Position numbers and translations under genes: made by a program. From a bacterium (GTDB lineage Bacteria; Patescibacteriota; Microgenomatia; Levybacterales; UBA12049), in NCBI GenBank assembly GCA_021824155.1, contig JAKALN010000004.1, positions 1 to 38,925 of the forward strand: DNA of 38,925 nt, given 5' to 3'. Of the stretch, positions 16,974 through 19,604 are shown one piece after another; the stretch's first letter is position 1, and the number at the start of each line of letters is the position of its first letter. The notes beneath the pieces were generated by a model. That model was not told where the DNA came from. It saw only the letters and a program-made list of their open reading frames with translations, and made no database searches.

Positions 16974-17606
16974 TTAGAATCCGTTGTTTCTTATTGTAAC
17001 CGACGTTGAAAAAGGTATAGTCGCATTTTTTTCGCTGATAAAAGTGCTTGACGAGGATGAAATTTGGGATAAGGTAAAGTTTATGCCTATTGTAGGCGGT
17101 TCGGTAAGGGTGTGACCAGTACAGGTAAAATAACATTTTGTAGGATCAACGGAAACCGTTGAAGTGTCTATCAGGGAAGAAGAATTTGAAGCAATTGTGT
17201 ACGGGTTTCCCGAACATGAAAACACAGTTTGCCCTCCGTCAAATGAAGTTATTTTAACGTAATAAAACTGTTGCGGGGTAGGGGTAGGTAAGGGGGAAGG
17301 AGAACCCGATGGCAGGGGAGTAGGAGCAGGAACACAGACAGTGGTATAAGTAACACCGTCCGTACTTACACCGTTAAAAGCTTGGGCAAAGGTTAACATT
17401 TTTGAAATTTGGATAATCGCGTAGTTTCCATTTTCCCTTACGTTATTCAAAACAGTTGACTTATTCGAACCCCTTAACGAGGACACGATAATCCCCGTAA
17501 CGATCATGCCTACGACGACCATAATAACTATAACCGTTAAAAGCTCTACTAACGTATAGCCTTTTTGCGGATTCTTAATCCTTAATCCTAAATTCTTAAT
17601 TTTCAT
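16974..17606 (-). CDS. Minor prepilin (PilW/GspJ-like)
   Basis: KG|YTLVELLTVIVIM class III signal; VRENGNYA; PTP-rich loop. Confidence 0.87.
   Translation of the reverse strand: MKIKNLGLRIKNPQKGYTLVELLTVIVIMVVVGMIVTGIIVSSLRGSNKSTVLNNVRENGNYAIIQISKMLTFAQAFNGVSTDGVTYTTVCVPAPTPLPSGSPSPLPTPTPQQFYYVKITSFDGGQTVFSCSGNPYTIASNSSSLIDTSTVSVDPTKCYFTCTGHTLTEPPTIGINFTLSQISSSSSTFISEKNATIPFSTSVTIRNNGF
17573..17600 (-). repeat. Heptamer array in a pilin leader peptide
   Basis: Sense strand attaaga atttagg attaagg attaaga, encoding IKNLGLRIK. Confidence 0.8.
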
Positions 17607-18103
17607 TATGGTGTATTAAAAATAGTACCGTTAAGATTTGCAAAACAGGATTTTAAGCCGACATTATGGCAAAATTGGTTATTTTTATCCGTACATTTGC
17701 TGTCCGACCAGGAGACAGTTACGACCGTTAAAGCGCTTCCGCTGCAGGAAGGGGAATTCTGTGTTATATCTACTTCTCTTACAAATATCCCGTAATTTTG
17801 GCCGCAGGAATTAGAAACAGGGTCAACGGTTCTTAAAAGAGTCGTGCCCCCGTCCATACAATACCGCCCTGCAGTATAGGAGGAAAATAAATTCCAGTTG
17901 GATAAACTGGTCTGGCGCATTACCTCCATTGCTTCCTGGGCATACTGGCTGGCAATGTTTTGGTTTTTGGTGTATTGGACGTTGTTTAAGGCGGAAATAA
18001 CAGTTATCGTTATTGCAGATACGACCAAAACGGCCGCACCCAAGGCAACAAGTGCTTCAAGTAAACTTTGTCCCTTTTCTTTATTTTTATCTAATATTTC
18101 CAT
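17606..18103 (-). CDS. Minor prepilin (PilV/GspI-like)
   Basis: KG|QSLLEALVALG; A.QYAQEAME.MR; FVREVDI, VTVSW. Confidence 0.85.
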   Translation of the reverse strand: MEILDKNKEKGQSLLEALVALGAAVLVVSAITITVISALNNVQYTKNQNIASQYAQEAMEVMRQTSLSNWNLFSSYTAGRYCMDGGTTLLRTVDPVSNSCGQNYGIFVREVDITQNSPSCSGSALTVVTVSWSDSKCTDKNNQFCHNVGLKSCFANLNGTIFNTP

Positions 18104-18596
18104 TATTATCTATTGTTATTGTAAGTGTTTTACTATAGCCGGTAAGCACAATTTTTGTGTTTCCGCCCGTAGCTCCGCTTGAGATTACAGGGTAGAAAAT
18201 ACTGCTTGCTGTGGTCTGTGAACTGAAAGTAATATTAGCCGGCAGCGTTGTTGTCTGGATACTGTGGGTGCCAAGACAGATAACGCTTAGAGTATAGGAA
18301 TTATTAAGGGTATTTATATCTACCTGATAGCCGTTTAGCACCTGTCCCGAGCACACGGCAGGCACAACCTGCGAAAGAGCGCGTGACCTTGCCAGCGTTA
18401 TTGTATTTTCCAGATCAGACCCTGCCTGCACCAAAGTTTGATTCCTGCTGTAGCTAACAAACGATGCTATCCCCATTGTCGAAAGGATGGCGATAACCGT
18501 AAAAACTACAATTAATTCCAAAAGAGTGAAGCCATCGGAAGATTTACGTTTTATGATTGATAATTCATGAATTTTATTATGTAGGCAGTCAACCAT
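18087..18596 (-). CDS. Minor prepilin (FimT/GspH-like)
   Basis: G|FTLLELIVV; L...ITLARSRALS; C-terminal TITIDNNGNI. Confidence 0.85.
   Translation of the reverse strand: MVDCLHNKIHELSIIKRKSSDGFTLLELIVVFTVIAILSTMGIASFVSYSRNQTLVQAGSDLENTITLARSRALSQVVPAVCSGQVLNGYQVDINTLNNSYTLSVICLGTHSIQTTTLPANITFSSQTTASSIFYPVISSGATGGNTKIVLTGYSKTLTITIDNNGNIR
18541..18575 (-). repeat. Degenerate heptamer array in a pilin leader peptide
   Basis: Plus strand gatttac gttttat gattgat aattcat gaatttt, same flavour as 3361-3395. Confidence 0.6.
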
Positions 18597-18609
18597 AAAT
18601 ATTATTTTA

Positions 18610-19062
18610 TTAAGGGTTTTTTACCGTGTAAGACCAGTTTGTGGTTCCGGTGCATGGGGCTATGTTTGAAGTATCTTTTTGGTTATCGTTAAGGTTTTCA
18701 AGACAGGCTATTATTGAATAGGTTGTGCCGTCCGAAGAAAATGTGTAACTTCCGCCCAAGGGGTCGCACGGGATTGTCTGCATATACGTTGTGCCGTTTA
18801 AGGCCAAGGATGTCGTATTGCAAGCGGGAAGGGAAGTAGGATAACTTCCCTGGTCGGACCTGTAAAGCTCCATTGCCGACTGAATCTGGCGTAAATCCGA
18901 TTTTCTCTGTGCGTCCCTTGCCCTTTGCCTTACGCCTACAAAATTGACCATAAGAAGCGTAGCCAAAACACCTATAATCGCAATTACAATTAAAAGTTCT
19001 ATTAAAGTAAAACCCTTACCCGAATTTTTAACTTTAAATTTTAAATTTTTAATTTGCTTCAT
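18610..19062 (-). CDS. Prepilin, GspG-like
   Basis: KG|FTLIELLIVIAIIGVLA; RARDAQRKSDLRQIQSAMELY..D.G.YP; IPCDP. Confidence 0.92.
   Translation of the reverse strand: MKQIKNLKFKVKNSGKGFTLIELLIVIAIIGVLATLLMVNFVGVRQRARDAQRKSDLRQIQSAMELYRSDQGSYPTSLPACNTTSLALNGTTYMQTIPCDPLGGSYTFSSDGTTYSIIACLENLNDNQKDTSNIAPCTGTTNWSYTVKNP
19023..19055 (-). repeat. Heptamer array in a pilin leader peptide
   Basis: Sense strand aattaaa aatttaa aatttaa agttaaa aatt, encoding IKNLKFKVKN. Confidence 0.7.
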
Positions 19063-19604
19063 GGTGTCACATTAGGACTTGTTACTGCAAAATTGCAGGG
19101 CCCGCCGCAGGAATTTGCAGTTATCCCGTTTGCTGCGATGCTCGGACACTCGTTGTTAACCAGATTCTTACAAATCTGCGGGTCGGACGTACCTCTATCA
19201 AGCGTAGCATAAAGATAATAAGATTGTCCAGTTGAATAGTAAACATAATTGTCGGAAGAAACAGGGTCTTTAGGAAGTAAATTCATATATGGCTGCCATT
19301 GGGTTCCCCAATCCGCAGTTGTCAAATCAAGCCTTACAATTCTGTAAAGAGGGGGGGTAACCGCAGAGTAAGACGGATATTTTCCGTTGTCCTGATAATA
19401 GGTTTCAAGGGCCCTTTGGATTTGGGCCAAATCCGATTTTCTTCTTGAATCGTTTGCTTTTTGAAACTGGGCAAAGGGATTAAGCGCAACTATAGATCCT
19501 ACAGCAAGAACAGAAAGAATCCCTATAACAACAATAAGCTCCACAAGCGTAAAACCTTTTTCTTTATTTGAAATTTGAAATTTGAAATTTGAAATTTTAT
19601 TCAT
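19059..19604 (-). CDS. Prepilin, GspG-like (start moved to ATG 19604, TAATG overlap with upstream stop)
   Basis: [64 protein letters not shown]. Confidence 0.9.
   Translation of the reverse strand: MNKISNFKFQISNKEKGFTLVELIVVIGILSVLAVGSIVALNPFAQFQKANDSRRKSDLAQIQRALETYYQDNGKYPSYSAVTPPLYRIVRLDLTTADWGTQWQPYMNLLPKDPVSSDNYVYYSTGQSYYLYATLDRGTSDPQICKNLVNNECPSIAANGITANSCGGPCNFAVTSPNVTP
19566..19593 (-). repeat. Perfect (ATTTGAA)x4 tandem repeat inside a pilin leader
   Basis: Four exact 7-nt units at 19566-19593. Confidence 0.92.

Follow-up and report, generated by a model that had tools for sequence, protein, structure and literature searches.

In Escherichia coli K1, the neuO gene of the CUS-3 prophage carries an AAGACTC repeat in its 5' coding region, and translation yields the full-length product for repeat numbers that are multiples of three and for no others (PMC13001214; this and the other reports cited here are represented by excerpts). 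Tract length spans 3–53 units, the OFF state accounts for 42 of 64 complete genomes, and a clonal culture showed approximately 7% off-length alleles (PMC13001214). Tracts of hmw comprise 13–38 units (PMC2651432). Here we analyze 7-nt tandem arrays situated within the leader sequences of pilin-like proteins encoded by a 38,925-nt stretch of DNA (the window; contig JAKALN010000004.1 of assembly GCA_021824155.1, positions 1 to 38,925, forward strand) from a tiny, uncultured bacterium of the patescibacterial order Levybacterales. An initial annotation had read these arrays as candidate phase variation of pilus composition, with tolerated landing sites for a repeat family as the alternative; our analysis finds the alternative better supported.

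Heptamer repeats are known in other settings too, among them the STRR heptamers of cyanobacteria, and one family lies largely outside genes. The TAACTGA repeats of marine Beggiatoaceae, cyanobacteria, and Bacteroidetes occur in 2–6 copies, mostly intergenic and in a single orientation (MacGregor 2015, PMC4679880). They stand a few nucleotides upstream of start codons, few of which have a Shine-Dalgarno (SD) sequence, and within open reading frames (ORFs) they are found only in the stop-free orientation, at protein peripheries (PMC4679880). The abstract and sections 3, 7, 13, and 15 of that article draw no link to pilin leaders. As summarized there, Mrazek et al. 2007 found heptanucleotides to be the most abundant longer-unit class in many genomes and proposed polymerase slippage as their origin. 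A further point of reference is Coxiella burnetii's 23S rRNA intervening sequence (IVS), which has been called a selfish genetic element (PMC4990558). We found no literature on heptamer arrays in prepilin leaders or in genomes of the Candidate Phyla Radiation in a search that did not extend to supplementary tables.

Heptamer arrays in the prepilin leaders of a pilus operon

We assign a probability of roughly 0.6 to the reading that, in the pilin leaders, members of a ~32-nt heptamer-array family spread through this genome and its order are translated in frame, without acting as a regulated switch. When a surface-protein gene has a heptamer tract at its 5' end, the tract is usually taken for a contingency locus. 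The present case shows this inference to be unsafe in the ultra-small Patescibacteria, where such tracts are a general genomic building block that makes up cassette arms, hairpins, and start-proximal arrays and enters proteins in frame where it is tolerated, including in essential enzymes and cleavable leaders.

The window corresponds to contig C3 of an 814-kb genome assembled in 32 contigs and 99.5% complete (G000). Its minus strand encodes a tightly packed pilus operon, with overlapping stop and start codons, in which, after a prepilin peptidase gene, ORFs begin at 20512, 19604, 19062, 18596, 18103, 17606, and 16886; five of these ORFs contain the PF07963 N-terminal methylation motif. Using Tandem Repeats Finder (TRF; window rows at score 30), we detected arrays in three of the pilin leaders, all on the minus strand. 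The perfect array noted by the initial annotation is indeed present at 19566–19597, where TRF and direct reading of the sequence agree on (AAATTTC)x4.6 with 100% matches (plus-strand unit ATTTGAA). It is free of stops in the reading frame and encodes ISNFKFQISN within the 17-aa leader of a 181-aa pilin-like protein that starts at ATG 19604 (19059–19604; PF07963 N_methyl and PF08334 T2SSG). The next pilin-like ORF (18610–19062, 150 aa; PF07963 and PF08334) has a degenerate array of AAATT(T/A)A type at 19023–19055 (4.7 units, 84% matches) in its leader MKQIKNLKFKVKNSGKG/F, the slash marking the predicted cleavage site. A second degenerate array, composed of AATTAAG, AATTTAG, and GATTAAG (17571–17601, 4.4 units, 83% matches), lies in the leader MKIKNLGLRIKNPQKG/Y of a 210-aa ORF (16974–17606; PF07963, G/Y site). 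All three arrays begin 5–7 nt past the ATGs at 19604, 19062, and 17606 and end ahead of the G/F or G/Y site, and their units are distinct, as the annotation had stated.

Its count of four array-bearing leaders holds for these three and not for the pilin-like ORF at 18087–18596 (minus, 169 aa; PF07963). The leader of that protein, MVDCLHNKIHELSIIKRKSSDG/F (18531–18596), is only weakly periodic, produced no TRF row, and is not callable as an array. Measured as the best lag-7 self-match out of 21, its periodicity is 15, compared with 18, 21, and 18 for the other three leaders (control lags score 8–9). Among 5000 random 103-nt genome windows, 1.8% scored at least 15, as did 0.3% of 2000 shuffled versions of this leader, making it at most a decayed array.

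All four ORFs match PF07963 and so qualify as type IV pilins or pseudopilins with a class III signal peptide, a class defined by a G/F(Y)TLxE motif followed by a hydrophobic helix, and the genome supplies a prepilin peptidase (20383–21198, minus; PF06750 and PF01478). Judging from its domains, this PilD-type enzyme is expected to remove the leaders. Since removal by prepilin peptidase would make almost any stop-free sequence tolerable in this segment, an array that entered it would encode a leader extension rich in K, N, I, and F. Overlapping stop and start codons would leave the leader-coding segment as the sole place for an array to persist. We infer cleavage of the leaders, and we take the arrays for stable coding sequence and not for a regulated switch. 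The arrays have no RNA structure of their own, folding like shuffled sequence (z between −0.5 and +0.5).

Two further features of the operon concern its first pilin ORF (start 20512, minus). Its first 130 nt are shared, in a different frame, with the 3' end of the peptidase gene (20383–20512), resulting in a 40-aa leader ahead of G/FTLVELL, and a long overlapping leader is likewise found in G001 (a relative described below) and at the relatives' loci L005, L006, L009, and L011. The C-terminal half of the same pilin contains a Pro/Thr/Ser-rich linker encoded by a 30-nt tandem repeat at 19767–19866 (2.0–2.3 copies, 86%–100% matches), within which 6-nt and 18-nt sub-repeats are also found.

A family of period-7 arrays and its association with PF05635 genes

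Seven is the most common TRF period in the genome (177 rows). At a threshold of at least 4 units and at least 85% matches, we counted 32 arrays of period 7, as opposed to 0–6 for periods 4–12 and none of period 7 in shuffled sequence; at 80%, the numbers are 59 for period 7 and 11, 3, and 1 for periods 6, 8, and 9, respectively. More than half of the 59 (32) are mostly intergenic, far above random placement (mean 5.0, maximum 10 in 200 trials), and 18 have their center in the 60 nt upstream of called starts, where random placement puts 3.4, with the reservation that genome-wide genes are crude longest-ORF calls whose start positions are approximate. Thirty-one TRF arrays end 0–30 nt before a start. 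In 17 of these the array is in a forward orientation (TTAG/TTAAG/TTCAG), 2 are reversed, and 12 are of other types; an SD-like 4-mer precedes the start in only 4. Dozens of units occur, the most frequent canonical forms being AAATTCT (12), AATTCAG (9), and AAAACTT (7). The copy number of perfect arrays is gapped, falling either at 2.1–2.6 (42 rows, chance-like) or at 3.7–4.7 (10 rows), with no perfect array in the G000 genome between 2.6 and 3.7 copies or above 4.7. Imperfect arrays peak at 4.4–4.9 copies, or ~32 nt. The three leader arrays, which measure 4.4–4.7 units, belong to this family.

The family extends into coding sequence well beyond the pilins. Twenty-seven of the 59 arrays lie inside called ORFs, and in 10/10 cases checked against Pfam the host is a recognizable housekeeping protein: MreB, AlaRS, FolD, RsmH, TsaD, RecJ, Fmt, a pseudouridine synthase, an NAD(P)HX dehydratase, and a ComF-like protein. 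The MreB array occupies a loop that differs in length among six genomes of the family. The perfect AAATTTC array also has matches at many places in relatives. The 20 that we fetched have 3.6–5.7 units, mostly 4.6–4.9, and most are read through in frame, in hosts identified by eye as ArgRS, GuaA, TsaD, GatB, TopA, ribosomal protein L10, LeuRS, and RecJ. Thus, arrays as long as those of the pilin leaders occur in genes for which frequent frameshifts would be intolerable.

Two of these coding arrays merit separate description. RecJ has an in-frame array at the same DHH-domain position in G000 (contig C7, 8719–8760; AATTCAK type) and in G010 (L049; AAATTTC), the G010 protein being identified as RecJ by eye only. 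On contig C5 (26267–26344, minus), a 365-aa ORF opens with a hairpin pair of heptamer arrays; the A-rich arm encodes MNKLKTYNLKLKI and the T-rich arm the next, hydrophobic stretch, SILFFTFYVLSFIF, and the two resemble the n- and h-regions of a signal peptide.

Part of the family is associated with small genes encoding PF05635 (23S rRNA IVS) proteins. Six such genes are present in the genome, lying between or within protein-coding genes, and in each case both flanks are heptamer-periodic and, to the eye, resemble inverted arms. Five of the six have a TRF array next to them, C8 being the sole case with arrays on both sides and C19 the one with none. When 111 TRF arrays were paired at 72% complementarity, 18 fell into hairpin pairs no more than 150 nt apart and 13 flanked segments of 151–1200 nt; at a complementarity of at least 70%, 38 arrays were paired versus 11 in a reversed-sequence control. 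The family includes inverted arms of small PF05635 cassettes, hairpins lacking a gene, and solo copies, with a concentration at gene junctions near starts.

A relative provides a direct connection between the cassettes and a pilin leader. At one pilin start in G027, the stop codon of the preceding pilin is followed by an (ATTGAAA)n arm, a PF05635 ORF (69.8 bits; cut-off 33.8) whose TGA overlaps the pilin ATG, a (TTCTCAA)n arm, and then KG/FTLIELL. The leader array of this pilin is the downstream arm of the PF05635 cassette. The leader arrays of the window share its layout, with an ATG, 5–8 nt, the array, and KG/F in succession. Accordingly, the landing-site alternative raised by the initial annotation has gained support from several directions: the 59 arrays of the genome are mostly intergenic or start-adjacent, further copies are translated in frame in housekeeping proteins, others form the arms of PF05635 genes, and in G027 an arm is the pilin leader itself.

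Several intergenic members of the family lie in the window. Between a pilB-like and a pilT-like gene, a perfect (AATTTCT)x4.7 array (26120–26152) and an imperfect inverted partner (26174–26205) occupy non-coding DNA, the perfect array ending ~10 nt before the pilT-like ATG; a fold pairing both arms has −15.2 kcal/mol (z −1.5). Read on the gene strand, this site upstream of the pilT-like gene holds 4.7 units of AAATTAG in G000 and 4.6 units of TTGATAA in G001 (L045 11343–11374), a difference that implies either concerted change of all units or replacement of the array at constant size. Where the pilB-like gene and a plus-strand ORF (28078–28728) diverge, two inverted arrays at 27988–28021 and 28048–28079 make up a hairpin, with an RNA fold of −18.5 kcal/mol (z −4.6) that none of 200 shuffles equaled. 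A forward array followed by the leader GCGACTGAAAG(G/A)AGATAT..ATG recurs nearly unchanged ahead of three genes, here at 28048–28095 and on contig C15 at 17695–17745 and 18295–18345. Toward the end of the window, inverted arms (37413–37435 and 38207–38245; 83% and 72% complementary) surround an HhH-GPD gene (37524–38111; PF00730), and a 4.4-unit array (38762–38792, plus) ends 8 nt before the ATG at 38801. At 27943–27980 (minus), the pilB-like gene has TTGACT, 18 nt, TACTAT, 7 nt, and its ATG, and it lacks an SD sequence, as do many array-preceded genes. G001, with TTGACA, conserves the −10 region and the distance from there to the ATG, which suggests a leaderless mRNA.

Frame state, origin of the arrays, and alternative explanations

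To place the leader arrays in context, we sampled 43 loci in relatives, yielding 104 distinct pilin N-termini, and scored an array at a lag-7 self-match of at least 17/21. Nineteen of the 104 reached this value, as opposed to 0, 0, 1, and 0 at lags 5, 6, 8, and 9. An in-frame start precedes the entire array in 14 of the 19 cases, the array spans the start in three, and it precedes the start in two; no pilin N-terminus among the 104 lacked an in-frame start. Combining the 14 with the three in the window, leader-internal arrays are in the ON frame in 17/17 cases, bearing in mind that these arrays are non-orthologous and derive from consensus assemblies. At neuO-like rates, the chance of this outcome is ~1e-8 by our own arithmetic, a value qualified by the same two properties and by the non-independence of related genomes. 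The degenerate arrays provide a second line of evidence. In both, a perfect repeat would place TAA in frame, and the codon present is TTA, one of three mismatches. The mismatches that remove TAA therefore indicate selection for the present frame, and against in-frame stops.

Comparison within the genus was possible with G001, the sole same-genus species among the 40 nearest genomes (~70% DNA identity; 69% in the search). A metagenome scan with the 165-aa ORF at 17606–18103 as the query returned two loci with 59%–60% protein identity. The initial annotation had asked whether array lengths in related genomes differ by multiples of 21 nt. They do for the 19604 leader, which exceeds its G001 orthologue, itself containing only ~2.5 units of another heptamer, by 21 nt (3 units), and not for the 17606 array, which is retained in G001 at ~5 units with a length difference of 3 nt. 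In the G001 orthologue of the 19062 pilin, the array is upstream of and across the ATG. From these comparisons, arrays arise and then erode over evolutionary time, and G000 and G001 give no sign of rapid single-unit change.

These observations bear on slipped-strand phase variation, in which the gain or loss of heptamers would toggle individual minor pilins to produce mixed pilus compositions, as in neuO. The ON/OFF switching put forward by the initial annotation is mechanically possible. The unit length is not a multiple of three, the arrays sit in the 5' coding region of surface-structure genes, and removing or adding one unit in silico truncates all three pilins, leaving 3–24 aa before a stop, as the annotation had anticipated; at 19566–19597, loss and gain of 7 nt give products of 24 and 15 aa, respectively. 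Switching of this kind would nonetheless be expected to leave out-of-frame copies, and none was found among the 17 leader-internal arrays, whereas neuO is OFF in 42 of its 64 genomes. It is true that one array (19566–19597) is perfect, that the 19604 leaders of G000 and G001 differ by exactly three units, and that arrays are more frequent in pilin leaders than at other gene starts. However, the tracts of 4.4–4.7 units, two of the three only 83%–84% regular and with mismatches that keep the frame, lie at the bottom of the neuO range and below that of hmw, perfect arrays do not exceed 4.7 units, and the unit count of the 17606 array is kept across the genus. Frequent slippage in the same-sized in-frame arrays of MreB, AlaRS, TsaD, and others would be lethal. 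The absence of any MutS domain (PF00488) among those found in the 99.5%-complete G000 genome could raise slippage rates, which favors switching and is a difficulty for stable coding arrays. Taken together, positive support for switching is lacking, and we regard it as quite unlikely.

An alternative is that the arrays are functional cis-elements at start codons, serving as an mRNA or DNA platform for a regulator or the ribosome, as proposed for the Beggiatoaceae TAACTGA repeats; pilin arrays would then have been displaced into the leader for want of intergenic room. Consistent with this idea, arrays that precede starts are predominantly forward (17 versus 2 reverse among 31) with few SD-like 4-mers (4), the site upstream of the pilT-like gene maintains 4.6–4.7 units in both G000 and G001 despite the differing unit, and excerpts of MacGregor 2015 (PMC4679880) describe the same layout. 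Leader-internal placement also occurs mainly where an upstream ORF abuts the start (9/14 pilins with leader-internal arrays versus 27/81 array-less pilins, and 0/5 with spanning or preceding arrays). On the other hand, unit sequences vary among arrays and are therefore unlike the target of a single sequence-specific binder, and the predicted openness of the region from −20 to +50 is inconsistent, placing the array-bearing starts at the 5th, 25th, and 36th percentiles of 852 genes. The leader arrays are unstructured, a sigma-70 consensus scan gave no excess over shuffles and did not flag them on the gene strand, and arrays inside enzymes cannot serve a start codon. A cis-element role is, in our view, improbable.

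More specific versions of such a role were rejected. The same percentiles, along with folding indistinguishable from shuffles, exclude as a general rule that arrays keep translation starts unstructured. As sigma-70 promoters, the arrays fail in that 39 sites were found at 16800–28300 compared with 29 ± 6 in shuffles, none flagging the leader arrays on the gene strand. By our own reading of the sequence, a TTTAGAA-type array sets TTTAGA and TAGAAT hexamers 17 nt apart, and we keep the idea of a sigma-70 promoter role for upstream arrays alone. Programmed −1 frameshifting was likewise set aside. AAATTTC and AAATTTA fit the X XXY YYZ pattern and other units do not, and we regard the fit as a probable by-product of A3T3 composition.

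Selection might instead act on the peptide, with a 7-residue periodic, K/N-rich amphipathic leader aiding membrane targeting or recognition by prepilin peptidase. Leaders are indeed alike across genomes (KIKNLGLRIKN, IKNLKFKVKN, ILNFKFQILN, and LIKNLKFKIKN), a likeness that follows from shared AATTNAR-type units. Any of the three frames of a heptamer array gives the same cyclic peptide, several arrays are perfect at the DNA level (21/21), exceeding what peptide selection requires, and the same peptides are found in enzyme loops. Array-less pilins are moreover common in the same operons, accounting for 85 of the 104 in relatives in addition to the promoter-bearing pilin near 23731. We consider selection at the peptide level very improbable.

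The preferred reading, that the leader arrays are in-frame members of the genomic family, faces difficulties of its own. With respect to origin, the window arrays are probably solo-arm relics of cassettes rather than de novo slippage products, although slippage within A-rich codons of the leader would equally lead to what is seen. Several observations weigh against the cassette as their source. A cassette origin is shown only in a relative, G027. No PF05635 ORF is present in the pilin operon or adjoins the leader arrays, and no inverted partner arm for any of them was found within 1.5 kb; the best partner of the 17571 array is only 61% complementary. The 19566 and 19023 arrays, which bracket the 19604 pilin ORF, are 73%–75% complementary only to each other. 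We rejected them as an arm pair, the duplex being weak (−8.4 kcal/mol, z −1.8 versus a shuffled partner); mutual complementarity is expected in any case because the AAATTT core is palindromic, or self-complementary. Genome-wide, 80 of the 111 TRF arrays are solo, so de novo slippage is a live origin. Furthermore, the perfect array at 19604, 21 nt longer than its counterpart in G001, indicates that unit number does change over evolutionary time.

The distribution of arrays presents a further difficulty for the same reading. Array-bearing leaders make up 3/6 of the pilins here and 19/104 in relatives, versus 16/847 gene-start windows genome-wide, and tolerance alone does not explain this enrichment. 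Lack of intergenic room may explain part of it, given how often an upstream ORF abuts the start of pilins with leader-internal arrays, and a preference of the cassette for pilin junctions is another candidate source.

A bolder extension of the cassette origin would treat the arrays not as microsatellites but as defined-length arms (~4.5–5 heptamers) belonging to a mobile cassette that resembles an IVS and has gene starts as its targets. In this scheme, each subunit of the PF05635 protein would recognize one heptamer, and a cassette landing in a pilin operon would bring a new ATG and leader codons and thereby build and diversify prepilin leaders across Patescibacteria; some perfect arms might still work as rare switches of frame. 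Among solved structures, 2gsc is the nearest to the PF05635 proteins; its entry has five chains, and it is reported to form a pentamer of four-helix bundles. We speculate, prompted by the five chains, that one array arm matches one protein oligomer. This extension is unlikely as a whole. If the cassette reading were true, a selfish element related to rRNA IVSs would be a recurrent source of signal-peptide and loop sequence, with a bearing on how surface diversity is generated in reduced genomes.

Relation to known repeat systems

Viewed against the systems introduced above, as represented by the excerpts cited, the leader arrays combine features of several. They share with neuO a heptamer repeat positioned just inside the 5' end of a surface-related gene, where one unit shifts the frame. 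Unlike neuO, the arrays have 4.4–4.7 units, two of the three are degenerate, and 0/17 are OFF. The heptanucleotide survey of Mrazek et al. 2007, as summarized in PMC4679880, differs from what we observe in three respects, namely the bounded length of the arrays, the inverted-arm cassettes, and the enrichment in prepilin leaders.

The resemblance to TAACTGA repeats is closer for the family as a whole than for its pilin members. Arrays of the G000 family are short, mostly intergenic, forward, start-proximal, and SD-poor, and the leader arrays themselves lie past the ATG. TAACTGA repeats have one conserved unit and copy numbers that fall monotonically, whereas units in G000 differ by array and lengths peak at ~4.4–4.9 units; part of the G000 family, unlike TAACTGA, consists of inverted arms around PF05635 genes.

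These arms are reminiscent of the S23p/PF05635 IVS, in which a small PF05635 ORF likewise lies between inverted repeats able to form a stem. The three leader arrays of the window depart from such cassettes in having neither an ORF nor a clear partner arm. In contrast to the 23S rRNA IVS, which is inserted in a 23S rRNA helix and excised from the precursor, the cassettes of G000 are located between or inside protein-coding genes and have heptamer-periodic arms, and in G027 such an arm can be translated as the leader of a pilin.

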